Shown: positions 2,711-56,113 of the stretch, in pieces
Layout of the letters: each line of letters starts with the position of its first letter
Numbering within the stretch: the stretch's first letter is position 1
Source of the DNA: Acidimicrobiia bacterium
Lineage (GTDB): Bacteria > Actinomycetota > Acidimicrobiia > Spongiisociales > ZC4RG35
Reading direction: 5' to 3'
NCBI GenBank assembly: GCA_036375695.1
Contig: DASVBU010000007.1
Span: forward strand, 5,380 to 69,379
Length of the DNA: 64,000 nt
Notes under the pieces: model-generated
Databases searched by the model: none
What the model was told of the DNA's origin: nothing
The model's input: only the letters and a program-made list of their open reading frames with translations
Made by a program: the position numbers and the translations under genes

Positions 2711-4963
<2,253 letters not shown>

Positions 4964-41272: not shown

Positions 41273-42193
41273 TCAGCGGCTCGTCACGTAGATGTCACCC
41301 ATCCCGGAACGACCGGAACCGAAGTAGAGGACCTTCCCGTTCCTGGAGAGCGAAGGACGCGTGTCGGGGGCCGTGCTGTTCACCAGGGCGCCCAGACTCA
41401 CCGGATCCGACCAGCCGTCACTCGACAGCGTGGACGTGTAGATGTCGGGACCCGTCGCCGCGCCGCCGCGGTTGCTCCAGAAGAACAGTTCCTTGCCGTT
41501 GACCCTCAGGTTCGGCTGGGCCTCCTCGAATTGCGTATTGATCTCCAGGGGTATCCCCGGCCCGTAGGCCCCGCCCGACAGCGGTGACATGTAGATGTCG
41601 TGGTCGGTCGTGGTGTCGCCCGGGAATGCCGGCCGGCCGCTCGAGTACAACAAGACCTTCCCGATCCCTTGCATCACAGCCGGGAACGGGCTGTGCTCCT
41701 CGAACGGGCTGTTGACCACGCAACCCAGGTGGGTGACGCTCGTGGCATGCGAGTTCTCATCCAGTTGGGCGGTGTAGAGATCGGCGTTGGTGGCCGAACC
41801 ACAGTGCCCGGGACGGTTGCTGGCGAAGAAGAACGTCTTCCCGTCCGCCGAGATCGTCGGGCAGAAGTCGTTCGACGTCGAGTTGATCGGCGGCCCGACG
41901 TTCACCGGCTCACTCCACGGTTCGTTGGGGCCGCTCCGGGTGGAGACCCAGATGTCCTGCCCGCCCTGGGACGTCTCATCCTGCCTGGTCGACATGAGGA
42001 AGAACCTCTTGCCATCCGGCGAGATGAAGGGACACCCTTCCGTCGAGTTGTCCAGGTTGAAGCTCGGATGCGCACCCGCCCCGAAGTCCTCGATGCTCAC
42101 CGCCTGGCCCCACGGCCCGGCCGCGCCGGCGACCAGTGCAGCCGATAGGACCAGCAACACCGCAAGGCTGGTGATCGTCGTCTTTCGTCTCAT
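41273..42193 (-). CDS. Secreted TolB-like (PD40/WD40-like) beta-propeller protein
   Basis: About 306 aa from ATG 42193, with the signal peptide 'MRRKTTITSLAVLLVLSAALVAGAAG'. It carries repeated 'P(S/T)IS(A/P)DGK.L(F/Y)F.S.R' PD40-like units. Confidence 0.6.
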   Translation of the reverse strand: MRRKTTITSLAVLLVLSAALVAGAAGPWGQAVSIEDFGAGAHPSFNLDNSTEGCPFISPDGKRFFLMSTRQDETSQGGQDIWVSTRSGPNEPWSEPVNVGPPINSTSNDFCPTISADGKTFFFASNRPGHCGSATNADLYTAQLDENSHATSVTHLGCVVNSPFEEHSPFPAVMQGIGKVLLYSSGRPAFPGDTTTDHDIYMSPLSGGAYGPGIPLEINTQFEEAQPNLRVNGKELFFWSNRGGAATGPDIYTSTLSSDGWSDPVSLGALVNSTAPDTRPSLSRNGKVLYFGSGRSGMGDIYVTSR

Positions 42194-42218: not shown

Positions 42219-42632
42219 TCATGGCTTCTCCACCGGTAGTCCCTCTCTCTTCCAAGCCTCGATCCCACCCGAGAGATGACCGAGGTCGCGGTAGCCCAGG
42301 GTCCACAACGTGGACGCAGCCAGGGCCGACCGCTCCCCCGACGAGCAGTAGAGGATGAGGCGGCGACGGTGGTCGAACTCCACCCGATGACGGTGATCCG
42401 CAGGGTCCGCCCAGAACTCGAGCATTCCCCGCGGGGCCCACACCGAGTCAGGGATCCAGCCTGAGACCCTGAGCTCGTCCTCCTCGCGCACGTCGACGAG
42501 AACCGCACCGTCCGACAACTCGCCCCGGACCTCCTGGGGAGACAGGCTCACCAGGTGCCGACTGGCGTCCTCCACCAGTTCGGCTGCCGTTCTGCCGGCT
42601 CTCTCTTCTCCCGTCGACACGGTCCGGACCAT
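42219..42632 (-). CDS. Rhodanese-domain sulfurtransferase
   Basis: 137 aa. The active-site loop is 'LILYCSSGERSALAA', followed by 'GYRDLGHLSGGIEAW'. Confidence 0.8.
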   Translation of the reverse strand: MVRTVSTGEERAGRTAAELVEDASRHLVSLSPQEVRGELSDGAVLVDVREEDELRVSGWIPDSVWAPRGMLEFWADPADHRHRVEFDHRRRLILYCSSGERSALAASTLWTLGYRDLGHLSGGIEAWKREGLPVEKP

Positions 42633-42707
42633 GAATCACGCCGCTGGTACGACTCTGGGAGCCCCCTGGCCACCGCTACCAGCAGATTCCCAGTGGCAGA
42701 TGACACG

Positions 42708-45700
42708 GTGATTCGGGACGCAGGGGTAGAGCCAAGGAGAGTAAGAATCGCCACTGTGAGGTACCGGGCGTTGGGCCCGATCACAGTCGAGGTCGACGGC
42801 CATGCCTCGAGACTCGGCGGTCACCGCCAACGGATCGTTCTGGCGGTACTCCTCAGCCGTGCCAATCAGGTGGTGGCGCAGGACACCCTGATCGACGCCG
42901 TGTGGAGCGGCGAGCCGCCCGAGGCGGCCAGGGCCACCCTGCAGAGCTACATCTACAACCTCCGCCGAGCCACCAAGAGCGACCTCATCCTCCGCCGCGG
43001 CGACGGATATCTGATCGAGGCCGACGCCGGGAGCTTCGACGTGCTCGACTTCACGGCCAAGCTGGAGCAGGGCCGTTCGCTCCTCGCCACCAATCCGGGG
43101 GCGGCCAGGGAGGAGCTCGCAGACGCCCTCGGCCTCTGGTACGGAGCGCCGTACGGCGGGGTGGACCATCTCGAGCTCCACTCCGAGATCCAACGCCTCG
43201 ACGAGATGCGGGTGAACGCAGTCGAGGCGCGGATCCAGGCAGATCTGGCGCTGGGACGGGACGGGGAGCTGGTGGGCGAGCTGGACGCCCTCGTCCGCGA
43301 GTACCCGCTCCGGGAGCGGTTCTGGGGACAGTTGATGCTCGCCCTCTACCGATCCGGGAGGCAGGCCGAGGCACTCCGCACTTTCCAGCAGGCACGCGCC
43401 CGACTGGTCGACGAACTGGGGATCGAGCCCGGGGCCGAACTGCAGGAGCTCGAGGATCGAATCCTGGCTCAGGACCCCTCGCTCCTCCCCGATCGTTCGT
43501 CGAACCCTCACAAGATGGATGCCGGTTCGCTTCGTGGGTACGAATTGCGAGAGGTCCTCGCATCCACCGCTCTGGGTGTGGCCTATCGCGCCTACCAACA
43601 CTCGGTGGGCCGGGAGGTGGTCGTCAAGTCGATCCGGCCCGAGTTCGCCAACGACACGGCATTCGTCGCCCGCTTCGAGAAGGAGGCACAGACGGTCGCA
43701 GCGCTGGGCCACCCGCACATCCTCCCCTTGCACGACTATTGGAGGGACCCGAGTGGTGCCTATCTGGTCGTGCCGTTCATGGCCGGCGGCAGCCTGGCCC
43801 ATTCCCTCCGGGCCCAGCACTGGCACCTGGAGCCGGCGATGCGATTGCTCGACCAGATCGGCGGCGCCCTCGGCCACGCCCATCGCCGGGGAGTGATCCA
43901 CGGGCACCTGACCGCGTCCAGCGTCGTCCTCGACGACGAGGGAAACGCCTATCTGGGGGACTTCGGCATCGGGCTGGCTCCCGACGGCGGTCTTCCGACC
44001 GTGCTCACGGATGTCGAGGCCCTGGGCAGGCTGGCCCTTCACCTGCTCACCGGGGAGCCACCCCGGGGCCAGCCCGACACGACCGGCCTCCCGGCCGGGT
44101 TCGGCGAGGTCGTCGCCCGCGCCGTCGCCGCATCGCCCGGCCGCTATTCCCGGGTGTCCGACTTCCTCCGAGACCTCAGGCGGGCTGCCGGCATGGACGT
44201 GTCCACGGGATCGGATCTGGTCGAGCCACGCGGCGAGCCCATCCGTAACCCGTACAAGGGGCTCCGTGCCTTCACCGAGATGGACGCGGCCGACTTCCAC
44301 GGCCGCGCCGAACTCGTCGGACATCTCCTGCAGACGATCTCCGAGCAGAGGCTGGTCACGATCGTGGGGCCTTCGGGGAGCGGGAAGTCCTCGGTGGTCC
44401 GGGCAGGCGTGGTGCCGTCCTTGCGCGCCGGGGCGTTGGCGGGATCCCAGGACTGGCTGATCACCGACATGTTCCCCGGCTCCTACCCGTTCGAAGAGCT
44501 CGAGGCAGCCCTGCGCCGTGTGTCGGTGCGAGGCGCAGACGACATCATGAGTGAGCTGACCGCACCGACGGGGTTGCTCCGCGTCTGCAAGAGGATCCTC
44601 CCCGAGGACTCGATGCTGCTCCTCATCATCGACCAGTTCGAGGAGCTGTTCTCGCTGGTGCGCTCCGAGGAGGTCAGGCGCACCTTCATCGACAACCTCA
44701 TCGCGGTGGCGGACGACGAGCGGGGTCGGATACGCGTCGTCACCACCATCCGGGCCGACTTCCTCGATCGACCACTCTCCTACGGCGACTTCGCAGCAGC
44801 CATCGCCCCCGGGCTGGTGACAGTCGGGCCACCGGCCCGTGACGGCCTCGCCCAGTCGATCGCCGCCCCGGCACGTGCCGTCGGCCTCGAGCTGGAACCG
44901 GGTCTGGTCACCCAGGTCGTCGCCGACGTGGAGGGCCAACCGGGCGCTCTGCCACTTCTCCAGTACGCGCTCACGGAGACCTTCGCCGCCCGGGAAGGAG
45001 GCACGCTGACCTTCGCCGCCTACGAGTCGACCGGTGGCGTGGCCGGGGCGATCGGGCGACGAGCCGAAGAGCTGTACCAGGACCTGAGCCCTGTCGCCCG
45101 GGAGGTGGCGAGGGAGGTCTTCCTCCGTCTGGTCGCGGTCGACGAAGTCGGAGTGGTGACGCGCAAACGCGCCCGCCAGAACGACCTGACATCGCTGGCC
45201 GTGGATCGGGCGGCCCTGCAGAAGGTGCTCGACGCCTACGCCCGGTTCCGCCTCATCAGCTTCGACCGGGACCCGGTGACCCGAGGTCCGACCGTGGAGG
45301 TCGCCCACGAGGCGCTGCTGACCACGTGGCCGAGGCTGGAGACCTGGATCGACGACGCCCGGGAGACCCTCGTCATGGCCAGACGGGTCGGGGAGTCCGC
45401 CCACGACTGGGTCGCGTCCGACAAGGACCCCAGCTACCTGCTCCGCGGCTCGCGTCTCGACGACATCGAGCGATGGTCCGCCGGCCCGGGCGTGATCCTG
45501 ACCGGCGACGAGGAGGACTTCATCACCGCCAGCGTCATCACCCGCAACGAGGAGATCGCGGCCGGGCGCCGCCGCCGCCGCCGAGCGCTGACGACCCTGT
45601 CCGTGGGGATGGTCCTGGTGAGCCTCTTCGCCATCCTGGCGTTCTTCCAGCGGCAGGCAGCCCGCCGGGAGGCGACCCTCTCCATCAGCAGGGAGCTCGC

Positions 45701-47813
45701 CGGGGCTTCCCGTCAGCTCGCCAATCCGGAGCTGGCCCTCCTGGTGGCCATGGAGGCATTCGACACTTCGATCAGGGACGGTGCGGAGCCGACACAGGAG
45801 GCGGTCAGTGCCCTGGCCCATGCCATGTTCGATTGGCGCCTGATCACACGCTACCCGGCGGCGGGTCGGCTCGGCCCGATGTCGTCCCCGGACGGATCCC
45901 GGGTGGCTGCCCAGTCTGTCGACAACCCCAGGAACGTCGTCGTGTTCGATGCGGGCGGATCCCCGCTGTCCGAGCTCGTCGGTCCGGACCTGGAGGGCAT
46001 CCAGGCCGACTCGACCGCATTCCACCCCGATGGTGAGTTGATCGCGGTCGCATACACCATCGAGGGTGCCCGGACCTATTCGGCAGTCCCGGAAGGTGAA
46101 CCGGACGTGATCTTGTTCCGGGCGTCCACCGGTGCCGAGGTGGCCCGAATCGACCTGGTCCCCATTCCGGACCAGCCGCTCGACAACGGCACGGGCGCTT
46201 TCCCGGTTTCCTTCAGCGCCTCGGGACGGCTTCTGGCACTCTCCGGCGGCACCGAAGTCGCCGTGGTGGACTGGGCCCGAGGCGAGGAGATCACCCGGAT
46301 CCGATTCGCGGGCCCGACGGGCCCTGCGACCTTCCTCGGTGAAGACACGCTCTTCGTCCCCGTGGCCTCACGAGGCTGGACGTGGTACTCGATCAGCGAG
46401 GCCCGGGAAATCGGGGCGGTCGACGTGCCGGGCATGACCGACATCGCCGCGGCCGATCCCGCCGGGCGTCGCCTAGCCCATCGCGTCGGCGAGCGGGTCG
46501 AGGTGTTGGACGCCATGACCAACGAGGTCCTCATCAGCGTGGAGGATCCCGGGATCCTGGCCCTGGCGGTCAGCCCGGACGGCGCGCGTTTCGCCTACTC
46601 CGGATACGACTCCACCATCCACGTCATCGACCTCGAGGGAGGGCGCCCCGAGATCCTTCTCGAGGGCGCCTTGTCGAACGTGATATCGATCACCTTCGTC
46701 GGCCCCGATCGACTCCTCACCAACGGCGAGAACCCGCTCATGTGGGACGTATCCATGGGCTCGGAGGCGTTCGGGTTCGCGTCGCTGTCGAGACCGCAAT
46801 GGGGGTTCCAGGTGTCACCCGACGAACGCTGGCTCGCCTACATGGTCTCCGCGAGCACCGGTCTTCCCATCTTCGACCCGGGCGACGGGGTGCGTCTCAT
46901 CGACCTCGCCTCGCATGACGAGGTCCTGGCCATCGAGGGAGAGCTCCAGAGCGTCCCGATCGGGCTCAGGATGGTGAGCCCCGACTTCACCCTGTTCGGG
47001 TCGCTCCGGGAGGACATGTCGTCCAGCTTGAGGCTCCTGCCCTCCTGGGATCCCGTCGTGGAGTTCGAGCGCTGCCGGGCTGCGCTCGCGTTCTCACCGG
47101 ACAGCACCCGGGTCCTCCTGTCGGGATCACTGTGCCCGGAAGAGCCCGATGGCGCCCCCAACACCGAACTGATCGACCTGGAGACGGGCGAGACGGTGCT
47201 CACCCTGCCCTACTCGTACACCTTCTCAGCCGAGCTGAACCCCGAAGGAACCTTCGAGGCCGGGCGCTATCTCGTCGCCACCGACCAGGACACCGTGGGC
47301 GTCTGGGACACCCACACCGGCGAGCAGTTGGTCGCCCTGGACCCCCCACCCAGCTGGGAGTACGTCCTCGTGGTGAGCTTCGACTCCAGCGGGCGGCGCA
47401 TCGTTGGTGGTACGACTGCAGGGACGGTCTGGGTCCTGGACCTCGCCGCCGTGGTCGAGGGCGCCACGACCGATGAGGCACTGGTGTTCACCAGACAGGC
47501 CCACTCGGGTGCCACCCCAGGCCCGGCCGTGGGCCCCCAGGGGATCGTGGCGTCCCCGGGGTTCGATGGCCTGATCCGGATCTGGGACGTGGATACGGGT
47601 GCCCTTCTCTTCGAGTACGAAGCGGACATGACGACGCCGTATGTCCGGTTCTCCACCGACGGGAGCAGGCTGTTCTATCCCCATGGGCTCAGCATCAGGC
47701 AGATGCCTGTCGACCCCTACGAGCTCCGTGCATTGGCGGGCGAGTTGGTCACTCGGGACTTCCTCCCCGACGAGTGCGAGAGGTACTCCCGCGACCCGTG
47801 CGAACAGGGCTGA
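42708..47813 (+). CDS. Giant multidomain signalling protein: SARP (wHTH + BTAD) - degenerate Ser/Thr kinase - STAND P-loop NTPase - WD40 beta-propeller
   Basis: About 1700 aa. The N-terminus 'YRALGPITVEVDG..RQRIVLAVLL...LIDAVW' is wHTH, and the BTAD carries 'ELHSEIQRLDEMRV...ALYRSGRQAEALRTFQQAR..L..ELGIEP'. The kinase-like region has 'VVVKSI', 'HPHILPL', 'HRRGVIHGHLTASSVVL' (the HRD Asp is replaced) and 'LGDFGIG'. The STAND region has 'PYKGLRAFTEMDAADFHGR' and the Walker A 'GPSGSGKSS'. The C-terminal repeats include 'LIRIWDVDTGALLFEYE'. The start is uncertain: the ATG at 42555 overlaps the rhodanese gene, so GTG 42708 is proposed. Confidence 0.8.
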   Translation: MIRDAGVEPRRVRIATVRYRALGPITVEVDGHASRLGGHRQRIVLAVLLSRANQVVAQDTLIDAVWSGEPPEAARATLQSYIYNLRRATKSDLILRRGDGYLIEADAGSFDVLDFTAKLEQGRSLLATNPGAAREELADALGLWYGAPYGGVDHLELHSEIQRLDEMRVNAVEARIQADLALGRDGELVGELDALVREYPLRERFWGQLMLALYRSGRQAEALRTFQQARARLVDELGIEPGAELQELEDRILAQDPSLLPDRSSNPHKMDAGSLRGYELREVLASTALGVAYRAYQHSVGREVVVKSIRPEFANDTAFVARFEKEAQTVAALGHPHILPLHDYWRDPSGAYLVVPFMAGGSLAHSLRAQHWHLEPAMRLLDQIGGALGHAHRRGVIHGHLTASSVVLDDEGNAYLGDFGIGLAPDGGLPTVLTDVEALGRLALHLLTGEPPRGQPDTTGLPAGFGEVVARAVAASPGRYSRVSDFLRDLRRAAGMDVSTGSDLVEPRGEPIRNPYKGLRAFTEMDAADFHGRAELVGHLLQTISEQRLVTIVGPSGSGKSSVVRAGVVPSLRAGALAGSQDWLITDMFPGSYPFEELEAALRRVSVRGADDIMSELTAPTGLLRVCKRILPEDSMLLLIIDQFEELFSLVRSEEVRRTFIDNLIAVADDERGRIRVVTTIRADFLDRPLSYGDFAAAIAPGLVTVGPPARDGLAQSIAAPARAVGLELEPGLVTQVVADVEGQPGALPLLQYALTETFAAREGGTLTFAAYESTGGVAGAIGRRAEELYQDLSPVAREVAREVFLRLVAVDEVGVVTRKRARQNDLTSLAVDRAALQKVLDAYARFRLISFDRDPVTRGPTVEVAHEALLTTWPRLETWIDDARETLVMARRVGESAHDWVASDKDPSYLLRGSRLDDIERWSAGPGVILTGDEEDFITASVITRNEEIAAGRRRRRRALTTLSVGMVLVSLFAILAFFQRQAARREATLSISRELAGASRQLANPELALLVAMEAFDTSIRDGAEPTQEAVSALAHAMFDWRLITRYPAAGRLGPMSSPDGSRVAAQSVDNPRNVVVFDAGGSPLSELVGPDLEGIQADSTAFHPDGELIAVAYTIEGARTYSAVPEGEPDVILFRASTGAEVARIDLVPIPDQPLDNGTGAFPVSFSASGRLLALSGGTEVAVVDWARGEEITRIRFAGPTGPATFLGEDTLFVPVASRGWTWYSISEAREIGAVDVPGMTDIAAADPAGRRLAHRVGERVEVLDAMTNEVLISVEDPGILALAVSPDGARFAYSGYDSTIHVIDLEGGRPEILLEGALSNVISITFVGPDRLLTNGENPLMWDVSMGSEAFGFASLSRPQWGFQVSPDERWLAYMVSASTGLPIFDPGDGVRLIDLASHDEVLAIEGELQSVPIGLRMVSPDFTLFGSLREDMSSSLRLLPSWDPVVEFERCRAALAFSPDSTRVLLSGSLCPEEPDGAPNTELIDLETGETVLTLPYSYTFSAELNPEGTFEAGRYLVATDQDTVGVWDTHTGEQLVALDPPPSWEYVLVVSFDSSGRRIVGGTTAGTVWVLDLAAVVEGATTDEALVFTRQAHSGATPGPAVGPQGIVASPGFDGLIRIWDVDTGALLFEYEADMTTPYVRFSTDGSRLFYPHGLSIRQMPVDPYELRALAGELVTRDFLPDECERYSRDPCEQG

Positions 47814-47944
47814 GAAGATCGCGAAACAAAATCGTCGATCCCACTTGCACGCCGGCTTCGGGATCTGATACAAATCCGCTGTCTGGCCGATGGGTTCTTC
47901 GGAATTCGTCGGCCAGACACTTTTTTGTCTCCCCTCTTCCCCGC

Positions 47945-48628
47945 TCAGCGGTCCCGGCGGAGCAGTGTCCGTATCGCCGAGTTCTTCCACAGGTTGGACA
48001 CGTACTTCCAGTGACGCTTCCGGTCCACCAGTTGAGCCGTCATCTCCACCTTCGGCTCGGCGACCCCGAAGTGGCCGGCGACCTGGCTCAGCGTGTGGTT
48101 CCAGATCTTGTCCTCCAGCCGCGAGGTGTAGATCTTGAAGCTCACCTCGTACAGCGGGTCGTTGGCGCGGACCAGGAGATGGATCCGGGCGACCGTGACA
48201 CCCTCGTCGTCCTCATGGGCGCTGAATGTGATGATGGCCGCCCAGGGATGACCCTCCGGCGTCATGTACGACCAGGAACGCTCGTCGGCGTAGATCACAC
48301 GGACGCCGGTCGTCACCCGGGTCGGCCCCTTGCCGCCGCCGATGACGGCGATCTCACCGGGGGCGATGCCGCCGGCCGGGGCGTAGAACTTGTTCGACGG
48401 GTACCAGAAGTCCCCGAACTTCGTCTTCCAGGTCGCGATCACCTCTTCCGGCGTCGGGCCCGGGATCCTGACCTCGTAGGTCTTCTGCCAGAGCTGGCCG
48501 AATCCTTGCAGCGGACCCACCGGGCGACGTCCCTCGACGTTGCCGGTCGGTGCCCCCTCGGGGACTTCCCCGAGACGGAACGCATCCACGGGCTTGGCCC
48601 AGTTGTCGGCGTTGATCGGTTCCGCCAT
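47945..48628 (-). CDS. Hypothetical protein (possibly DUF1990-like)
   Basis: 227 aa from ATG 48628 (MAEPINADNW...). The resemblance to DUF1990 is weak. The longer ORF in the track has an Arg-rich N-terminus that is probably not coding. Confidence 0.4.
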   Translation of the reverse strand: MAEPINADNWAKPVDAFRLGEVPEGAPTGNVEGRRPVGPLQGFGQLWQKTYEVRIPGPTPEEVIATWKTKFGDFWYPSNKFYAPAGGIAPGEIAVIGGGKGPTRVTTGVRVIYADERSWSYMTPEGHPWAAIITFSAHEDDEGVTVARIHLLVRANDPLYEVSFKIYTSRLEDKIWNHTLSQVAGHFGVAEPKVEMTAQLVDRKRHWKYVSNLWKNSAIRTLLRRDR

Positions 48629-48678
48629 ACGTGTCCTTTCGACACCACCGATCTTGCCGGGCACGCGTTCCGCGATCG

Positions 48679-49812
48679 TTACGACCGGATCCAGACACCG
48701 GCGGACACCGGCTGAACCGTTTCGGCCACCACGTCCCTCCATCCCGTGGCGATGTCGTCGGGGTCGACGCGGGAGCGGAGCGAGCGTGCGAAGGCGTCGG
48801 TCACCTTCCAGGCGTCGTAGCGGGCCCGGTTGAATCGGCGGTCGATGGCGCCCTGAACGCGCCTTCGGAGAGGGTTGAAGAGCGCCGCCACCGCCAGGGT
48901 GGAGGCGGCAACCGCCAGGGACGAATCCGTCGGCATCATCGACCCGATCACGGTCACGACTCCTACGAAGACCAGACCGAGGAGGCCCACCACCAGCAGG
49001 TAGGTGACGGTGCGGGAGACGATCTTGTCGATGTCGTAGAGACGGTATTTGAGGACCGATATCCCGATCGCGATCGGGAGGCCGAGGATGGCGGCCCCTG
49101 TCAGCAGGTCCCAAACGAACATGGGGACCGGGATCAGGTCGGCCAGCGTCTCCTGGATCGCGGTGGTGACGATCATGGCGAAGACCGCGAAGGCGAACCA
49201 CTTGATCTGCTGCCGCTCCAGATGACGGGCGTTGATCCATCTCGACACGAGCGAGAGCGCGGCGAGGACCACGAATATCGCCAGCACCAGATACCCGGCC
49301 GTGGAGAGTGGCCCGTGCTCCGGGTTGGGGATCCAGGAGATGCCGATCGGGTTATCCGCCCAGACGAGACACGAGCCATCCCCGGCGGTCTCCATGCAGA
49401 TGCGACCGGCGACGACATAGCTCGCGGCCAGCAGCCCGATACCCGCCCCGACCCAGCCGAGAAAGCCCCATCTACTCGAGGCAGGCCTCCCGTCGGGGAA
49501 CCAGTAGACCAGGAGCCCGACGAGCACGAACCAGGAGAGCCAAACCGCGCCACCGATCGCCCCCGCCAGCGCGTTGCCTCCCTTTGCCAGGTCGTCGAGG
49601 ACACCGCTGCTGAGGAGGAACACGCCGATGCCGGTCATCACCCAGCCGACGCGGTTGCCGTCTGTCCGGTAGAGGATCAGAGCGCCGACGACCGCGAAGA
49701 CCAGAGCTGCCAGACCGAGCAGGACCTCACCGGGCTCCTCCGCATCCGAGATCGCCATCGCGCTCAGGGCGGCCGCCCCGGAGACCAGGGCCAGCGAGGA
49801 GGCGACCCTCAC
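48679..49812 (-). CDS. Membrane protein resembling a histidine-kinase sensor/linker region without a kinase core (paralog 1)
   Basis: 377 aa with about 8 TM helices. The C-terminus 'VLKYRLYDIDKIVSRT...NPLRRRVQGAIDRRFNRARYDA...VAETVQPVSAGVWIRS' ends where HisKA_3 would normally begin. Confidence 0.6.
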   Translation of the reverse strand: MRVASSLALVSGAAALSAMAISDAEEPGEVLLGLAALVFAVVGALILYRTDGNRVGWVMTGIGVFLLSSGVLDDLAKGGNALAGAIGGAVWLSWFVLVGLLVYWFPDGRPASSRWGFLGWVGAGIGLLAASYVVAGRICMETAGDGSCLVWADNPIGISWIPNPEHGPLSTAGYLVLAIFVVLAALSLVSRWINARHLERQQIKWFAFAVFAMIVTTAIQETLADLIPVPMFVWDLLTGAAILGLPIAIGISVLKYRLYDIDKIVSRTVTYLLVVGLLGLVFVGVVTVIGSMMPTDSSLAVAASTLAVAALFNPLRRRVQGAIDRRFNRARYDAWKVTDAFARSLRSRVDPDDIATGWRDVVAETVQPVSAGVWIRS

Positions 49813-49828
49813 ACCGACGGATCTGCGC

Positions 49829-50179
49829 TCAGACTGCGGCGAGGGCGGCCTCCTCGTCGTCGAAGACCTCGATGGCCTCGTCGATGCGAGTGAGTGCGAG
49901 GATCTGGCGATAGTGGTCGGTCAGACCGCACGCCAGGAGCCGGTGCCCGCTCCGCTGCGCCCGGATCAGCGTCGTGACGAGCAACCCGATACCGCCACTG
50001 TTCATGTACTGGAGGCCCTCGAAGTTGAGGATGACGGCGTCGACGCCGCCTGCCGAGGCCTCCTCGTGCGCCCTGGTGATCTCGGCCTCGGAGAAGGCCG
50101 TGATCTCGCCCACGATGTCGACGGCGCGGACGCGTGGCGCCAGTTCTCGTACGGTCATCGTCACATTGGCGGATGGCAT
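49829..50179 (-). CDS. STAS-domain anti-sigma-factor antagonist
   Basis: 'VDIVGEITAFSEAEI...AVILNFEGLQYMNSGGIGLLVTTL...LLACGLTDHYRQILALTRIDEAIEVF' is the SpoIIAA/RsbV fold pattern. The start is chosen at the internal ATG (MPSANV). Confidence 0.7.
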   Translation of the reverse strand: MPSANVTMTVRELAPRVRAVDIVGEITAFSEAEITRAHEEASAGGVDAVILNFEGLQYMNSGGIGLLVTTLIRAQRSGHRLLACGLTDHYRQILALTRIDEAIEVFDDEEAALAAV

Positions 50180-50189
50180 TGGTCTCCTC

Positions 50190-50534
50190 TCACCGGGCCG
50201 CGACCGCGGCCTCTTCGTCGTCATGGATCGTCATGAAGTCGGCCAGACGGGTGATGGTGAACACCTCGCGGTAGTGGTCCGACAGTCCGAATGCGTGGAT
50301 CTCCCGCTCCTCGGCGCGGGCCCTCGCCAGCAGTCCGACGATGACCGCGATCCCGGTGGAGTTGATGTAGTCCACGCCCCGGAAGTCCAACACCACGCGT
50401 CCCGGCCGGCTGGTCGCCTCGGCGTAGGCCGCCTCGAGGGTCTCCTTGGCGCCACGGTCCACGGTGCCCACGAGGGTCACGACACTTCCGTCGTCGAGTG
50501 GCGCCGTCGTGGCCCGAAACTCGCTGTCCATCAC
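50190..50534 (-). CDS. STAS-domain anti-sigma-factor antagonist
   Basis: 114 aa. 'VTLVGTVDRGAKETL...VVLDFRGVDYINSTGIAVIVGLL...HAFGLSDHYREVFTITRLADFMTIH'. Confidence 0.75.
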   Translation of the reverse strand: MMDSEFRATTAPLDDGSVVTLVGTVDRGAKETLEAAYAEATSRPGRVVLDFRGVDYINSTGIAVIVGLLARARAEEREIHAFGLSDHYREVFTITRLADFMTIHDDEEAAVAAR

Positions 50535-52111
50535 AGCGCTCCCTTCCTCTTCACGATCAGCTCCACCGTGTGGGTGCGACCGTCGCTGGTGGAGCGGACC
50601 TCGTCGACCATCTTCTCGATCAGGAACAGGCCCCAGCCGCGAGGTGTCTGGGTGCCGGCGAGCTTCGCCTCGAGATCCGGGGTCTGCGCCTCGGGTATCT
50701 CCTTCGCCCCGCCCTGGTCGGTGACGCGAATCGTCAGGACCTCGTCCGTGGCCCTGACCTCGACCCCCACCTCGAGTTCGGGGCGGTTCTCGTTGCCGTG
50801 CTCGATGGCGTTCATCACCGTCTCGGCGAGGGCTGTCTTGAGACGCTCGACGTCCCGTTCCTCGAACCCGAGCGGGGCGACCACCTCCGCCAGACGGGCA
50901 ATGGCGACGCGCTCGTTCCCCTCCTCGCTGGCGACCGTGAAGGCGTCCAGCAGCTCACCGCTCTCGAAGGCCAGCGCCGAGTCCTGGGCCGAGCTCGACC
51001 GACGCACCACCACCAGCGTGATGTCGTCTTCCTGCTCCGCGTCGGGACCGGTGAAGGCCTCCAGGTCGCTGACCACCGCCGTGACCATGTCGTCCGACCG
51101 CCGGGCCACGCGGGACATCAGCCTCCCGAAGCCGTACATCTCGCCTCTGGGGTCGTGGGCCTCGGTGATCCCGTCGCTCGTCAGGACCATGATCTCGCCC
51201 GAGCCCATGGTGTAACGCTTCTCCTCGTAGTCCATGCCGGGCATGAGGCCGAGGGGCATCCCTGCGGCGCGGATCTCGACGACGCCGTCGGAGGTCTGCA
51301 TGTAGGGGAGGTTGTGGCCGGCGTTGGCCAACACGACGTCGCCACGCTCCGTGTCGATGATGGCGTACAGACACGTGACGAACATCGCCGCCGGGATCTC
51401 GGGGACCAGGGCGTCGTTGACCTCGGCGAGGACCTGTGAGGGTGACCCGTGCCGCTGCGCCGCGGCCCGCAGCATCGACCGGCAGGTGGCCATGACCAAT
51501 GCCGCGGGCACACCCTTGTCGGTGACGTCGCCGATGACCACGCCGAGCCGGCCGTCGCCCAGGGGGATGAAGTCGTAGAAGTCCCCGCCCACGGCCCGGG
51601 CGGGGCGATAGAAGGCGCTGACGTGCCAACCGGGGATCGCCGGCAGCTCCTTCGGGAGCAGGGTCTGCTGGATCAGGGCGGCGACCTTGAGCTCCTGCTC
51701 GATCCGCTCCCGCTCCTTGGCCTCGGCCTGCTGCTCCCGGATCAGTTGGGCGACCCGCATCGCCGGCGCCACCTGGGCGGCGAGACCACCGAGGAGCCTG
51801 CGGTCGTCGCTCGAGTACGGCTGGTCGGAGAGACGGGGCCCGAGATAGAGGGCGCCGAGGAGCTCTCCCTGGCCGATGAGGGGGACGATGAGCTCGACTC
51901 CCGCGGAGCGGATGGTCTCCAGCGTCGGAGAGACGAGCTCCAGGTCGCCGACGCCCACCGGTCCGCCCGCGGACAAGAGGACAGTCTCGAGGGGGTCGCC
52001 CGACGGGATGGGGATCGGGTCGAGCAGGGTCGTCGGCGTCACGGGCCCCTTGCCTACGGATGTCTGCCCGTTCTCGGCCCGGCGCCGTCGCAATCTCTGA
52101 AGCATCGTCAC
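50531..52111 (-). CDS. GAF - PP2C(SpoIIE) phosphatase - HATPase_c (RsbW-like kinase) fusion protein
   Basis: 526 aa. The N-terminus is GAF-like ('GELLGALYLGPRLSDQPYSSDDRRLLGGLAAQVA'), the middle is a SpoIIE phosphatase ('GGDFYDFIPLGDGRLGVVIGDVTDKG', 'VLTSDGITEA'), and the C-terminus is a GHKL ATPase ('AETVMNAIEHGN', 'TPRGWGLFLIEKMVDEV'). Confidence 0.8.
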   Translation of the reverse strand: MTMLQRLRRRRAENGQTSVGKGPVTPTTLLDPIPIPSGDPLETVLLSAGGPVGVGDLELVSPTLETIRSAGVELIVPLIGQGELLGALYLGPRLSDQPYSSDDRRLLGGLAAQVAPAMRVAQLIREQQAEAKERERIEQELKVAALIQQTLLPKELPAIPGWHVSAFYRPARAVGGDFYDFIPLGDGRLGVVIGDVTDKGVPAALVMATCRSMLRAAAQRHGSPSQVLAEVNDALVPEIPAAMFVTCLYAIIDTERGDVVLANAGHNLPYMQTSDGVVEIRAAGMPLGLMPGMDYEEKRYTMGSGEIMVLTSDGITEAHDPRGEMYGFGRLMSRVARRSDDMVTAVVSDLEAFTGPDAEQEDDITLVVVRRSSSAQDSALAFESGELLDAFTVASEEGNERVAIARLAEVVAPLGFEERDVERLKTALAETVMNAIEHGNENRPELEVGVEVRATDEVLTIRVTDQGGAKEIPEAQTPDLEAKLAGTQTPRGWGLFLIEKMVDEVRSTSDGRTHTVELIVKRKGAL

Positions 52112-52116
52112 GATGT

Positions 52117-53277
52117 CTACTCCCCCATCGTCCCGGAACCGTTACGGAGCCAGACGCCCACCGAGGCCGGCTGCATCGTCTCCGACACCACACCGACCCA
52201 TCCGTCGACCACCTCCGGCCCGTCCACCTTGTCCTGCAACGATCCCACGAAACGCTCCACGACCTGAACCGCGTCGTAGCGTGATCGGTTGAATCGGCGG
52301 TCCACCCAACTCTGGACACGACGCCTGACCGGGTTGAAAGAACCGGCCACCGCCAGGGTCGAACCGGCCACCGCCAGGGGGCTCTCGGTGGGCAGGATGG
52401 AAGACAGGGCGGTCACCCCGACGAAGAACAGGGCTGCGAGGAGCCCCACAACGATCACATACGACACGGTCCGGGAGAGGATCCGGTCGATCTCGTACAG
52501 CCGGTACCGGACGATGGCCACCCCGATCGACACGGGTATGGCCCAACCTCCCACCAGCACCCACAAGTCGGTGGCGATGGAATTCTCGGGGAGGACCTGG
52601 CCGAGGGCGCTGTCCAACACGAAGACGAGCCCACCGAGGAGCAACCACCGGTACTGCTGACCTTCGACACCCGAGCTCCCGCGGGCGCGGGCGAACAACC
52701 TCAGGAGAGCCAGAGCGCCCAAGAGAACGATGAGGAAGAAGCCGGACTCGTTGGTGATCACGGCCAGACCCGCAAGGCCGGGCACGGCGAGAGGGCTGGG
52801 CCGGCCCGTGTCGTACATGGGCTCGGGACTGATCGTGAATCCGAGCACGGCCCAGAGGGCGACCAGGATGAGCAACCTCCCCAGCCGGGCCTCCCACCGC
52901 GTGGCGTAGGCCCCGGTGGGGAAGGTGTTGAGAAGGGCGACGATGACGATCCAGGGCACTATGCCGAGCACCGTGTAGGCCAACTCCACCCACGGGCCGA
53001 TGGCTGGACGGACGTCGTACACGAAGGCCTGCAACCCGAACGCCAGGCCCATGATCGCGCCCACGCCGAGGGACAGTCGCCCGATGCGGTTGCCGGGCCT
53101 CTGCGTCAGGATCATCCACCCCGCGATCGGCCAACCCAGCCAGTACAGCGGGAACCAGCCGCCGGAGACGGCGTTGGCCAGGGGGCCTCGTCGGGTGGCG
53201 AGGACCATGCCCGCCAGGCTGGCCAGGGCGACCAGGGTCACCAGCGACCGCCGCAGATCCCAGCGCGCCCTCTTCAT
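52117..53277 (-). CDS. Membrane protein resembling a histidine-kinase sensor/linker region without a kinase core (paralog 2)
   Basis: 386 aa with about 8 TMs. The C-terminus 'IVRYRLYEIDRILSRT...NPVRRRVQSWVDRRFNRSRYDA...VSETMQPASVGVWLRN' is homologous to 48679..49812. Confidence 0.6.
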   Translation of the reverse strand: MKRARWDLRRSLVTLVALASLAGMVLATRRGPLANAVSGGWFPLYWLGWPIAGWMILTQRPGNRIGRLSLGVGAIMGLAFGLQAFVYDVRPAIGPWVELAYTVLGIVPWIVIVALLNTFPTGAYATRWEARLGRLLILVALWAVLGFTISPEPMYDTGRPSPLAVPGLAGLAVITNESGFFLIVLLGALALLRLFARARGSSGVEGQQYRWLLLGGLVFVLDSALGQVLPENSIATDLWVLVGGWAIPVSIGVAIVRYRLYEIDRILSRTVSYVIVVGLLAALFFVGVTALSSILPTESPLAVAGSTLAVAGSFNPVRRRVQSWVDRRFNRSRYDAVQVVERFVGSLQDKVDGPEVVDGWVGVVSETMQPASVGVWLRNGSGTMGE

Positions 53278-53404: not shown

Positions 53405-56113
53405 GTGCTCGACGTCAACCTACTAGGGACTCCGGAGGCCCTGGTCGACGGGAAGCCGATCAGGGTCGACACCACCAAGGCGATCGCCCTCCTGGCCTAC
53501 CTGGTGGTGGAACGCACCGCGCGGAGGGACACCCTGGCCGCGCTCCTCTGGGCGGATTCGTCACAGGAACGTGCCCGGGCGACCCTCCGTCGCACCCTGT
53601 CTGCCCTGCGCACCGCGGCGGGAGCCGACCTGATCGACTCCGATCGCAGCACCGTCACCCTCAGCGACCAGGTCGTGTCCGACTACGGCCAACTGCTCGC
53701 CGAATTGGATGCCACGACCCGGCACGACCACGCGCCAGGTGATGTTTGCCCGCTCTGCATGCCACATCTCGAGAAGGCGTCATCCCTCTATCGGGGCGAC
53801 TTCCTCCAGGGATTCGCCGTCCGGTCCGCCCCCGAGTTCGAGCACTGGTCCCGAAACGTGGCCCAGGCACTCCAGATCCGCATGTCCGGCGTCTTCGAGA
53901 GACTGGCCTCCGGCCTCGCCGCCTCCGGGGACTTCGACGCCGCCTCCGCGACCGTGGTGCGGTGGATCGAACTCGACCCACTCCACGAGCCGGCCTATCG
54001 CCTCCTCATGCTGCTCCGGGCCTGGGCGGGCGACCGGCCCGGCTCCATCGACGCCTACCGGGAGTGCGTCGCCGTGCTCGACCGCGAGTTGGCCGTGCCA
54101 CCACTCGAGGAGACCACGGAGTTGTACGAGGCGATCCTCGACGAGGACCTCCCGCCACCGCCCGGTGCCCGGAGGCGGGTGAGGCAGGCGGACTCCAAGC
54201 AGGCTCCCGTCCCCCCGGGTCTCATCGATCGGCAAGCCGAGTTGCAGAGCCTCCGGGGCGCGCTCGACGCCGCCCGGGAAGGAGGTCAGGTCGTGGCGAT
54301 GACAGGAGCACCATGGATGGGCAAGACCCGGCTCGCAGACGAGCTCATCGCCGCGGCGTCGGACCGCTGGACCGTCCTGGCCGGACGCGGTTACCGGATG
54401 GAGCAGGACCTTCCATACGGCGTGGTGACACAGCTCCTCCGGCCCGCGATCGAACGCATCGAGGAGGCCGGGCTCCCGGCATGGGTGATCGGAGAGCTGG
54501 CCCGCCTGCTGCCCGGTCTCGGTCGGGCCGGCATCGCCGACCCGTACGGCGAGAGCAGGTTGCTCGAGGCCATCCACGCCGCCGTGGGAGCTCTGGCAGC
54601 CGGCCGACCCCTGCTCATCGTGGTCGACGACGCCCATTGGGCGGATTCGTCATCGGCGGCCGTGCTCGCTTTCGTCGCCCGCCGCACGAAGGGGTTGCCC
54701 GTCCTCGTCCTCGTCCTGGCGCGAGAAGGCGAGGCCCCGCCTGCCGAGCTGGCGGACCTCATGTCCACCGCAGACGTGAGGATCTCGCTCCAGCCCCTCA
54801 CGGTGACCCAGCTGCTCCCGTTGGTGGGGAACGACGCGACGGCAGCACGGGACCTCGAGCTCCGCACCGGCGGGATCCCCCTCCTCGCGGCCGAGGCCCT
54901 CGCCTCCGGTGACGGCACATCGACACCCGGTTTGACCCGTTATCTGGAGACGAGGTGGAACGAACTGGGTGACCTGGAGCGACAACTCCTCACCGCCGCG
55001 GCCGTTCTCGGCGGGACCTGTGATCCCGGGTTGCTCCGGGACACCAGTGGGCGCTCTGAGGAAGAGGTCGTGGAGGGGGTGGAGAGGCTGACTGCCTTGG
55101 GGCTCCTCCGCGAGACGGCCGACGGAATCGGCTTCACCCTGGATGCGATGGAGCGGTTGGCATACGAGTCCGCATCCCTGGTTCGGCGCCGTCTGCTCCA
55201 TGGCCGCGCCGGCGATGCGCTGGCAGCCCGGCCCGACGTGCAGCGTGACGTCGCCGCCGCCGCGTCGGTCGCAGCGCAATACCAGGCCGCCGCTCGACCC
55301 GAGGCCGCGACCTGGTACCTCCTCGCCGGGGACCTCGCCCGAGCCGTCTACGCCCACGACATGGCCCGCCACTTCTACGAGTCGGCCCTGGCCCTGGGGA
55401 CGAACCGGGTGGCCGAAGCGAGACTGGCGATCGCGGAGCTCGACATGGCGGCCGGCCGATACGAGGAGGCTCGACGACAGCTCACCCTGGCGGGTCCTTC
55501 GGCCGGTGACCTCTCCGGGGTGATCCTGCATCGACTCGGTGACGTCGAGCGTCTCCTCGGCCGTTTCGACTCCGCCGAGGACCTGTATCGGTCGGCCCTG
55601 GACTCGGGCGCCGCCGAAGTGGCCCTGTTCTCCGACTGGGCGCTCCTCGCCATGCGCACCGGCAGGCAAGCCGTGGCCGTCGAGTTGGCCGAGAGGGCAC
55701 GCGCCTCGGCGGAGGAAGGAGGCAGCGACCTGGAACGCTCCCGGGTGCGCAGCATCCTCGCCGCGGTGACCACCGACCCGGGTACCGCCCTGGCCCATGC
55801 GGAGGCGGCCGCCGAGCTCGCCGGCGAGGACGAGGTCCTGCTCATGGCGGCGCTCAACAGCCAGGCGCTCGTCCTCGCCGAGCGCGGCGACCACGACCGC
55901 GCCGGCACGGTCCTGGAGCAGGCTATTGCCATCGCCCAACGGACCGGCCACCGGCATCGCGAGGCCGCGCTGTGGAGCCATCTCGGCGACATCCATCACC
56001 GTGCCGGCCGGGAGGACGAGGCCCGCCGGGCGCAGACACGGGCCGTGTCGATGTTCGCCGACATCGACGCCGGAGGGTTCGAGCCCGAGCTCTGGCTGCT
56101 CACCCGTTGGTGA
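53405..56113 (+). CDS. AfsR-like SARP-family regulator (wHTH/BTAD + AAA/NB-ARC-like ATPase + TPR-like C-terminus)
   Basis: 902 aa. The N-terminus 'LLGTPEALVDGKPIRV..KAIALLAYLVV...LLWAD' is followed by a BTAD ('LRAWAGDRPGSIDAYRECVAVLDRELAVPP'), the Walker A 'MTGAPWMGKTRLADEL', the Walker B 'LLIVVDDAHWAD', and a helical repeat C-terminus. Confidence 0.8.
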   Translation: MLDVNLLGTPEALVDGKPIRVDTTKAIALLAYLVVERTARRDTLAALLWADSSQERARATLRRTLSALRTAAGADLIDSDRSTVTLSDQVVSDYGQLLAELDATTRHDHAPGDVCPLCMPHLEKASSLYRGDFLQGFAVRSAPEFEHWSRNVAQALQIRMSGVFERLASGLAASGDFDAASATVVRWIELDPLHEPAYRLLMLLRAWAGDRPGSIDAYRECVAVLDRELAVPPLEETTELYEAILDEDLPPPPGARRRVRQADSKQAPVPPGLIDRQAELQSLRGALDAAREGGQVVAMTGAPWMGKTRLADELIAAASDRWTVLAGRGYRMEQDLPYGVVTQLLRPAIERIEEAGLPAWVIGELARLLPGLGRAGIADPYGESRLLEAIHAAVGALAAGRPLLIVVDDAHWADSSSAAVLAFVARRTKGLPVLVLVLAREGEAPPAELADLMSTADVRISLQPLTVTQLLPLVGNDATAARDLELRTGGIPLLAAEALASGDGTSTPGLTRYLETRWNELGDLERQLLTAAAVLGGTCDPGLLRDTSGRSEEEVVEGVERLTALGLLRETADGIGFTLDAMERLAYESASLVRRRLLHGRAGDALAARPDVQRDVAAAASVAAQYQAAARPEAATWYLLAGDLARAVYAHDMARHFYESALALGTNRVAEARLAIAELDMAAGRYEEARRQLTLAGPSAGDLSGVILHRLGDVERLLGRFDSAEDLYRSALDSGAAEVALFSDWALLAMRTGRQAVAVELAERARASAEEGGSDLERSRVRSILAAVTTDPGTALAHAEAAAELAGEDEVLLMAALNSQALVLAERGDHDRAGTVLEQAIAIAQRTGHRHREAALWSHLGDIHHRAGREDEARRAQTRAVSMFADIDAGGFEPELWLLTRW

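Follow-up and report, generated by a model that had tools for sequence, protein, structure and literature searches.

A predicted single-pass membrane STAND protein with a SARP head beside a divergent rhodanese-PD40 operon in an Acidimicrobiia bacterium

Introduction

What might be the function of a protein of almost 1,700 residues that joins a DNA-binding head, a kinase-like fold, a STAND nucleoside triphosphatase (NTPase) and β-propellers in one chain? This question is raised by a gene at 42756..47813 on the plus strand of a 64,000-nucleotide stretch of DNA from an Acidimicrobiia bacterium (GenBank assembly GCA_036375695.1, contig DASVBU010000007.1, positions 5,380 to 69,379), which is the whole stretch that was analyzed and is referred to here as the window. 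We propose that this gene, called the big gene below, probably encodes a single-pass membrane receptor and STAND-gated SARP activator, which would act on the divergent rhodanese-PD40 operon next to it and on itself. The proposal is drawn from sequence comparison and structure prediction, and it departs in several respects from a sequence-only reading of the window that had been made by a model without database searches.

Results and Discussion

Gene structure and domain organization

An open reading frame (ORF) scan and translation gave one ORF in a stop-free frame of the plus strand (42555..47813 in the window), in which the GC content at third codon positions (GC3) was 0.85, as in the other genes of this window of 68% GC. 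The product is arranged in the order of SARP head, kinase-like domain, nSTAND1 NTPase, transmembrane helix, helical stalk, tandem β-propellers and C-terminal cysteine-containing helices, as follows.

42756..47813, plus strand: whole gene, 1,685 amino acids plus stop (ORF, GC3, domains and orthologue start codon)
42756..43493, plus strand: SARP module, OmpR-type winged helix and BTAD (Pfam winged helix 42828-43010, BTAD 43038-43466)
43539..44186, plus strand: Hanks-type kinase fold, catalytically degenerate (Pfam, motif counts, fold and secondary structure)
44250..45431, plus strand: nSTAND1 STAND NTPase (full PF20703 profile)
45567..45650, plus strand: Arg run (RRRRRR) and, right behind it, one predicted membrane-spanning helix (ALTTLSVGMVLVSLFAILAFF) in N-in/C-out orientation, located between nSTAND1 and the propellers
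45651..47708, plus strand: predicted extracytoplasmic part, with a stalk to about 45830 and propellers at about 45840-47708
47715..47810, plus strand: C-terminal helices with an invariant cysteine pair (DECERYSRDPC; alignment conservation)

The sequence-only reading had placed four modules in one polypeptide, and all of them were indeed found in this single uninterrupted ORF ending at 47813, without a frameshift or internal stop. With residues numbered from GTG 42708, the Pfam matches were Trans_reg_C (residues 41-101, E 9e-8, above the cut-off), BTAD PF03704 (residues 111-253, E 7e-43, profile positions 2-146 of 146), Pkinase (residues 282-421, E 3e-16, only profile positions 5-144 of 263, from the N-lobe to DFG), nSTAND1 PF20703 (residues 515-908, E 6.5e-114, 381.9 bits against a cut-off of 27.1, positions 1-378 of 379) and WD40-type propeller matches (residues 1134-1655). 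NCBIfam agreed with Pfam for the head and the kinase, with its equivalog cut-offs unreached. The motifs that had been quoted for the modules were also located, namely VVVK (Lys307), FEKE (Glu326), HGH398-400, DFG418-420, PYKGLRAFTEMDAADFHGR and GPSGSGKSS.

The start codon is most likely GTG 42756 (MRYRALGPITVEV), resulting in a protein of 1,685 amino acids, because residues 1-13 counted from GTG 42708, the start proposed earlier, are disordered in the model, with the first strand at residue 17, because GTG 42756 is the start common to all orthologues, and because a predicted -10 hexamer (42704-42709) overlaps GTG 42708, which was accordingly rejected. The leader at 42730-42755, (A/G)AGGAGAgTAAGAAT, is conserved at the nucleotide level in orthologues, and an AT(C/T) codon is present 9 nt before the GTG start in most loci.

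Long spurious ORFs arise in high-GC DNA, as exemplified by an antisense ORF of 1,129 codons (42636..46025) that was judged to be a high-GC shadow ORF, and the big gene might likewise be an annotation artefact, either a shadow ORF or two or more separate genes fused through a sequencing error. We count this explanation as refuted, since the searches gave an identical protein and over 100 homologues of 36-66% identity that are colinear over their full length, each segment has a profile match and the frame has the GC3 of a gene.

Predicted membrane helix and external propellers

The nSTAND1 domain, which is matched by the profile over its full length and belongs to the nSTAND1 family, carries RNPYKGL, Walker A (GPSGSGKSS, 44367-44393) and Walker B (IIDQFEE, Asp at 44631). 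In an alignment of 47 sequences, G, S, G, G, K, S and S of Walker A and D, Q, E and E of Walker B were invariant, both motifs thus being intact, and so was AHEAL (His-Glu at 45306-45311), which may correspond, as judged from the sequence, to the MHD switch of NLR proteins or the HD switch of AfsR.

Behind this domain, a 19-residue window with a Kyte-Doolittle value above 1.6 was present at the position of the predicted transmembrane helix in 121 of 121 aligned sequences, while residue identity drifted. The uncharged run at this position had a median length of 22 residues in these sequences, and the net charge fell from +4.9 over the 15 residues ahead of the helix to +1.0 behind it, the bias being found in 119 of the 121. 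The AlphaFold2 model indicated one continuous helix running from the end of the NTPase module through the transmembrane segment into the helical stalk. Because the head, which binds DNA, and the NTPase have to be in the cytoplasm and a membrane span is predicted between them and the propellers, we infer a cytoplasmic location for the SARP head, kinase fold and NTPase and an extracytoplasmic one for the propellers. The conserved, predicted transmembrane helix did not appear in the sequence-only reading, whose STAND assignment holds; with the helix, the picture shifts from a cytosolic STAND protein to a receptor with an external sensor.

The model of the C-terminal part (predicted local distance difference test score 91.6, predicted template modeling score (pTM) 0.86) contained about 56 strands and can be read as two WD40-type propellers of seven blades each. 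Foldseek matched this part to tandem WD40 double propellers, including 2ymu and Utp21/Pwp2, and to Apaf-1 with E values of 1e-29 to 1e-22, and the single propeller assumed before is replaced by two. In addition to the invariant cysteine pair of the C-terminal helices, a second, nearly invariant pair is located within the second propeller. Cysteine was rare in the N-terminal 960 residues, i.e., the cytoplasmic part (about 0.1 per 100 amino acids), and the C-terminal part contained a median of 4 cysteines, the count being even in 92% of sequences. Such a cysteine pattern occurs in exported actinobacterial proteins, and we use it as supportive evidence. The ectodomain diverges faster than the cytoplasmic part, e.g., with identities of 49% and 70%, respectively, to the orthologue P0003.

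The same features bear on the alternative that the protein is a cytosolic AfsR-like regulator, in which the hydrophobic segment would be a buried or oligomerization helix and the propellers would sense a cytoplasmic ligand, as those of Apaf-1 do. Such an arrangement would be in line with the solubility of the characterized STAND transcription factors (AfsR and MalT) and of Apaf-1, whose propellers the modeled ones resemble. It is, however, quite improbable in view of the run of about 22 uncharged residues, in which hydrophobicity is conserved without sequence, the RRRRRR before it, the charge bias in 119 of 121 sequences and the asymmetric, even-numbered cysteines of the C-terminal part. The same segment is present, moreover, in relatives whose C-terminal domain is a right-handed β-helix.

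SARP head and candidate operators

The best matches of the head in the PDB, both by sequence and by fold, were AfsR and EmbR. The phmmer search gave an E value of 7e-39 against AfsR chains, and Foldseek gave 40% identity and a TM score of 0.85 with 8k60 (AfsR), EmbR (2fez) also being matched. Among the DNA-contact residues of AfsR (PMC10936776), W74, P79, R94 and K95 align with W, P, R and R of the head, and the base-specific residues T88, which contacts a base, and R92 align with S and N. The N-terminal OmpR-type winged helix is followed directly by BTAD, and the residues of both are invariant or nearly so in the 47-sequence alignment. By its sequence, the head is a true SARP.

The divergent transcription of the big gene and a rhodanese gene, which had been pointed out from the sequence, was confirmed. 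This rhodanese gene is the first gene of an operon, the second being a PD40 gene. That this operon is a conserved partner of the big gene, with SARP-type repeats in the promoter region between them, had been missed. The 135-bp region between the start codons of the rhodanese gene and the big gene reads, at 42644-42693 of the plus strand, CTGGTAC gact CTGGGAG cccc CTGGCCA ccg CTACCAG caga TTCCCAG. The features on this side of the big gene are as follows.

41273..42193, minus strand: secreted PD40 (TolB-like) β-propeller, 306 amino acids, signal peptide (MRRKTTITSLAVLLVLSAALVAGAAG; Pfam PD40 E 1e-28)
42219..42620, minus strand: single-domain rhodanese, 133 amino acids, loop CSSGERS (Pfam E 3e-16)
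42628..42633, minus strand: -10-like hexamer CATGGT of the predicted promoter of rhodanese, downstream of the proximal heptamer by 10 nt and upstream of the start codon GTG 42620 by 7 nt
42644..42672, minus strand: reverse candidate SARP box facing rhodanese, three heptamers spaced by 11 bp (TGGCCAG gggg CTCCCAG agtc GTACCAG on the minus strand)
42676..42693, plus strand: forward candidate SARP box facing the big gene, two heptamers with an 11-bp period (CTACCAG caga TTCCCAG)
42704..42709, plus strand: -10-like hexamer CACGGT (NANNNT) of the predicted big-gene promoter, 10 nt after the proximal heptamer

The transcription start of the big gene is predicted near 42716, and the rhodanese mRNA is predicted to be leaderless, because the -10-like hexamer is only 7 nt before its start codon. 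The afs box of AfsR consists of two 11-nt repeats at -40 to -19, in each of which 8 bp are contacted (PMC10936776), and the spacing from heptamer to hexamer equals this geometry; heptamers with an 11-bp period at the -35 position, as in the SARP family, are thus a sequence-level prediction for both promoters. A scan of the intergenic region for a sigma-70-type -35/-10 promoter or a terminator found neither, the lack of a -35/-10 pair being expected for activator-dependent promoters. The direct-repeat finder reported no family in this region, the copies being short and imperfect, and the opposed arrays were reported as inverted repeats I1 and I4.

The evidence that carries the regulatory part of our proposal is the conservation of these boxes. 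Of 14 distinct upstream regions of orthologues, 12 contain CCAG-N7-CCAG at a distance of 71 to 79 nt ahead of the start codon, as against 1 of 104 control regions upstream of more distant relatives (Fisher 1e-13, a value in which independence is overstated, as the sequences are related). The consensus of the forward pair is TTCCCAG-N4-TTCCCAG, and the orthologous regions are otherwise just 52-61% identical. NANNNT is located at exactly +10 from the proximal heptamer in 12 of 13 forward regions against a background of 0.0375 and, in a search that scored the -10 hexamer as a criterion, at the same spacing in 10 of 10 reverse-array loci, nine of which adjoin rhodanese, the remaining one, L097, adjoining PD40. 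The reverse layout, composed of a heptamer, 10 nt, CANNNT or GANNNT, 6-7 nt and a start codon with TCGAC, recurred in 9 of 10 loci, and the array of L097 showed no start codon within the 14 nt displayed.

At two loci, both copies of the forward pair have changed alike (TTCCTAG/TTCCTAG in L097 and ATCCAAG/TTCCAAG in L001), and in L097 the two proximal reverse heptamers, which face PD40, have changed at the same position (CACGAG). The L097 head has T in place of S at the recognition-helix position that aligns with T88 of AfsR. Furthermore, in L081, which is the closest relative (66% identity), rhodanese and the big gene are separated by a cNMP-binding patatin gene, and the forward box with about 30 nt of flank is nearly identical on either side of the insertion (5588-5774 and 7857-8061). 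This apparent box duplication speaks for a requirement of the big gene for the box, and hence for autoregulation.

As a side observation, heptamer position 5 is altered in four copies in L097, two forward and two proximal reverse, and the variant-heptamer loci L001 (about 1326-1415) and L097 (about 3922-4001) are the two from which rhodanese is missing.

The operon itself is conserved together with the big gene. In orthologous loci, rhodanese is located directly upstream and divergent, with 58-77% identity, and, on contigs long enough to show it, the operon adjoins orthologues that are 51-66% identical over the whole protein. Variations were observed in P0002, in which a patatin gene is inserted between the operon and the big gene, in L001 and L097, in which PD40 is directly divergent, and in P0038, which has rhodanese without PD40. 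Among the loci examined, the operon was absent beside relatives of 43% identity or less.

The sequence-only reading had connected the big gene to a partner-switching module as its direct neighbor. The STAS gene (49829..50224, minus strand) and the GAF-SpoIIE-HATPase_c_2 fusion gene (50531..52111, minus strand) are about 2 kb away, separated from the big gene by a 377-amino-acid ORF (48679..49812) that has no Pfam or PADLOC match, and such genes are absent next to every orthologue examined, so this link was rejected. Of the proposed neighborhood, the divergent side therefore stands and the partner-switching side does not. The pair, together with a second SARP-type regulator at 53405..56113, could be cited for a further alternative, in which the SARP head is vestigial, the protein signals by protein-protein contacts, e.g., towards STAS and SpoIIE-HATPase, with the pseudokinase as a scaffold, and the heptamers belong to another regulator. 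We consider this most improbable, because the winged-helix and BTAD residues are invariant or nearly so in 47 sequences, the partner-switching genes do not accompany any of the orthologues examined, and the boxes travel with the gene even after the L081 rearrangement.

Kinase-like domain

The fold of the kinase-like domain was matched by Foldseek to PknA, PknI and PknB. The window copy keeps Lys307 (43626-43628), the αC Glu326 and DFG (43959-43967), and it has LASTALG instead of GxGxxG, with two loop glycines lost, and HGHLTASS (HGH 43899-43907) instead of HRDxKxxN in the catalytic loop, with the Arg and Asp of HRD and the catalytic Lys and Asn all lost. A deletion has also shortened its activation segment by about 30 amino acids. 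The window copy does not, by these residues, qualify as an active Hanks-type Ser/Thr kinase.

In the alignment of the query with its 120 best homologues, the glycines of the Gly-rich loop were kept in 111, 101 and 114 sequences, the VAIK Lys in 105, the αC Glu in 109, the catalytic Asp in 89, the catalytic-loop Lys in 99, the Asn in 109 and the DFG Asp in 113. HRD was present in 67, Gly replaced its Arg in 45, mostly as HGD of the non-RD kinase type, and an activation segment containing xPE is likewise present in most homologues. The kinase domain of most relatives thus looks catalytically competent. The degenerate state is common to the window copy and its closest relatives, and separate degeneration was observed in P0070-73, P0077, P0079, P0090-91, P0094 and P0104; by sequence, the catalytic residues have been lost independently in several lineages with the fold being kept. 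The term pseudokinase used in the sequence-only reading is therefore right for the window gene, as a derived state, and wrong for the family, in which the catalytic Asp is retained by 89 of 120 homologues.

Homologues of about 1,900 amino acids (P0086, P0044 and P0018) have an insert of about 190 amino acids between BTAD and the kinase, which in P0086 is a class III nucleotidyl cyclase domain; PF00211 is listed for several others.

Proposed mechanism

In the working model that follows from a receptor of this topology, a ligand would bind to the external propellers, and the signal would travel along the continuous transmembrane helix to nSTAND1, which would switch by nucleotide binding and oligomerization, as AfsR and other STAND proteins do, here in the plane of the membrane. 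This switching would relieve autoinhibition of the SARP heads or cluster them. The NOD and TPR domains of AfsR restrain its SARP head until ATP binding relieves the inhibition, and two heads are located side by side on the repeats, contacting sigma region 4 and the polymerase core (PMC10936776). Similarly, the SARP heads of the big gene may be placed side by side on the CCCAG heptamers, which would replace -35 elements, and recruit RNA polymerase, so that transcription of the leaderless rhodanese-PD40 operon would be switched on together with that of the big gene itself, the latter by positive autoregulation. The kinase of most relatives probably contributes phosphorylation as an output or as feedback, by analogy with the action of AfsK on AfsR, and in the window copy the kinase fold can only be a scaffold or a nucleotide-binding spacer, because its catalytic residues are lost. 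As for the role of the rhodanese-PD40 operon, a link to sulfur or envelope stress is our guess.

Several points count against this model. For the boxes, the heptamer pattern is not rarer than chance within the window alone (3 matches against 3.7 expected), the distal forward heptamer of the window is imperfect (CTACCAG), and the counts for the reverse arrays are biased by the search criterion mentioned above. The case for the boxes thus rests on positional conservation across related loci that are not independent of each other, and the SARP-type regulator 5.6 kb downstream could in principle use them. A Shine-Dalgarno-like AAGGAG precedes GTG 42756 by 16 nt, which is unusually distant, and the packing of domains in the N-terminal model is uncertain (pTM 0.62). 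As for the cysteines, a similar C-terminal motif closes all five nSTAND1 relatives with other heads that are described below. Such a C-terminal motif is also found in WD40 proteins that have no membrane helix, which leaves the cysteine argument in a supportive role.

With regard to the nature and purpose of the signal, in which alone it differs from our proposal, a surface sensor of conflict or immunity has to be considered, whose propellers would detect phage, a competitor or non-self and whose SARP/kinase head would be an effector acting on transcription. The nSTAND1 domain owes its definition to systems predicted to counter invaders, and in two surveys of conflict systems it is named in association with TIR, caspase, trypsin and kinase effectors (PMC8195603; PMC10907252), and a relative with a trypsin-like head, L050, has the same chassis; the faster divergence of the ectodomain and the non-RD (HGD) kinases of 45 of the 120 homologues would also be accommodated. 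However, PADLOC gave only generic kinase-domain matches (PD-T4-6 and mad6) and none for the NTPase, the propellers or the neighboring genes, and the protein does not belong to the known anti-phage STAND types (Avs, bNACHT and others in PADLOC). Moreover, the synteny with the rhodanese-PD40 operon is stable in orthologues, unlike a mobile defense island, and the head, a transcription activator with candidate sites nearby, is no toxic effector. We therefore regard a role in conflict as unlikely and retain the receptor that activates its neighboring operon and itself as the preferred explanation.

Family and relation to known systems

A search with the nSTAND1 and transmembrane segment gave 19,749 clusters at 50% identity with E <=1e-30, and the 150 nearest representatives of such clusters were surveyed with this segment as the query. 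A SARP and kinase head was found in 103 of them, SARP without kinase in 1, something else in 13 and a kinase-only head, which may be truncated in some cases, in 33. The hydrophobic helix was present in 144 of the 148 that have enough C-terminal sequence, and BTAD, Pkinase and nSTAND1 were found together in 120 of 120 best matches of the whole protein. The family is distributed mainly in uncultured Acidimicrobiia and in metagenome-assembled genomes of other Actinomycetota, with some loci of cultured actinomycetes and bins of Chloroflexota. The architecture is common, with at least 103 clusters at 50% identity having the SARP and kinase head, and its database labels are generic, e.g., 'BTAD domain-containing putative transcriptional regulator'. 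In the literature on nSTAND1, on SARP with WD40, BTAD and kinase, and on EACC1/STAND, we found the architecture undescribed as far as it is searchable. The earlier view that this exact four-part family is not recognized is thus borne out for the searchable literature, but not in the sense of rarity. Of the refuting condition set with it, that the architecture be common and annotated, one half applies, namely the commonness.

An Arg-rich and hydrophobic segment right behind nSTAND1 was also found in all five complete nSTAND1 proteins with other heads. By Pfam, these consist of kinase, nSTAND1 and β-helix (L022); nSTAND1 and WD40, with a short HTH-like N-terminus seen by eye and no Pfam match for it (L023); BTAD, AAA_16, nSTAND1 and WD40, i.e., a SARP plus AAA_16 head (L025); nSTAND1 alone, without a head and with a tail that resembles the β-helix of L022 by eye and has no Pfam match (L027); and nSTAND1 and WD40, with a trypsin-like head seen by eye and without a Pfam match at E 1e-5 (L050). 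In the available parts of the papers that name and use nSTAND1 (PMC8195603, PMC10907252), a membrane helix behind this domain is unmentioned.

The nearest known system is AfsR and the other large SARPs of Streptomyces, which combine SARP, NB-ARC-type NOD and TPR. Like them, the big gene has a SARP head, a STAND NTPase and a repeat sensor, its candidate sites are direct repeats with an 11-bp period that occupy the -35 position and have the spacing of the afs box, and by analogy the NTPase and sensor likely restrain the SARP head until nucleotide binding. The big gene differs in that its NTPase is nSTAND1, NB-ARC not being among the Pfam hits, in that it has a tandem WD40 propeller instead of TPR, for which there was no match, and in that it has a kinase fold inserted between head and NTPase and a predicted transmembrane helix that would put the sensor outside the cell; the AfsR equivalog of NCBIfam covers only its head, with 164 bits against a cut-off of 1430. 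It is therefore not an AfsR-like large SARP, a soluble protein with NB-ARC NOD and C-terminal TPR, and none of the SARP classes, i.e., small, medium and large (AfsR-like or SARP-LAL), fits it (bioRxiv 10.64898/2026.09.02.748808). AfsK, which phosphorylates AfsR, is a membrane-associated Ser/Thr kinase with PQQ β-propeller repeats (PMC1262709; PMC10936776), so that the AfsK-AfsR pair contains the same parts, namely a Hanks kinase, a β-propeller, a SARP and a STAND NTPase, which in the big gene form one chain in the manner of a Rosetta stone. The big gene differs from AfsK in that its propeller is WD40 instead of PQQ and its kinase is dead, homology having been compared for the kinase fold only.

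Other comparisons concern the layout. The nSTAND1 proteins of predicted conflict systems (Kaur, Burroughs, Iyer and Aravind 2021) share the order of head, NTPase and repeats and the intact Walker motifs, whereas the head of the big gene is a transcription factor and kinase, not TIR, caspase or trypsin. ToxR and CadC combine an OmpR-type winged helix in the cytoplasm with a single membrane-spanning helix and a sensor outside the cell (PMC5430869), so that one protein takes up the signal and activates the promoter. Such a topology is predicted for the big gene, which differs in having a kinase fold and STAND NTPase of about 700 residues ahead of the membrane, BTAD and a double propeller; this likeness is an analogy, with no common descent evident beyond the winged helix. 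With PknD and the low-activity PknI of the actinobacterial Hanks kinases, the big gene shares the kinase fold and, by prediction, the single transmembrane helix and the external propeller, and it differs in lacking the catalytic residues and in having the SARP and nSTAND1 in addition. PknD of M. tuberculosis has a cytoplasmic kinase, a transmembrane helix and an external propeller. Taken together, the SARP, nSTAND1, kinase and WD40 parts are known, and their combination is common yet unstudied.

It is conceivable, although we stop short of calling it probable, that the big gene exemplifies a large unrecognized class of single-pass transmembrane STAND (NLR-like) receptors with nSTAND1 and a repeat sensor, either WD40 propellers or β-helix, outside the cell, in which the SARP-kinase subfamily couples extracellular perception to promoters via nucleoside triphosphate switching. 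If so, a receptor-like kinase, an NLR-like switch and a transcription factor would be united in one polypeptide, with CCCAG heptamers as its operator and rhodanese-PD40 as its output. STAND/NLR switches are held to be intracellular and SARPs to be soluble activators of antibiotic clusters in Streptomyces, and this family, which adjoins a rhodanese-PD40 operon and not a biosynthetic cluster, would break both expectations. It would offer a tractable system, because the operator and the output genes are readable from the sequence, and a natural experiment on the conversion of kinase to pseudokinase. If the membrane topology is general for nSTAND1 across the 19,749 clusters, the purely cytosolic picture of bacterial NLR-like proteins would need revision.

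Neighboring genes

The genes behind the stop codon of the big gene vary by locus, being DSBA, PMT_2 or unknown. A DSBA-type thiol-disulfide oxidoreductase gene (L082 10653-11327, minus strand) is located immediately downstream of the orthologue P0003, which is suggestive in view of the cysteine pairs of the ectodomain, and the other loci are without it. In the window, the stretch at 47814-48678 has no GC3-supported ORF. The fusion protein of the partner-switching pair consists of GAF, a SpoIIE-type PP2C phosphatase and an HATPase_c_2 anti-sigma-kinase domain. The ORF at 52117..53277 (minus strand, 386 amino acids) has a good GC3, as does that at 48679..49812, and no Pfam or PADLOC match. At 53405-56113 (plus strand), 5.6 kb downstream of the big gene, a canonical large SARP of 902 amino acids with BTAD, AAA_16 and TPR is encoded, so that the same genome encodes the classical soluble SARP type as well as the predicted membrane type.

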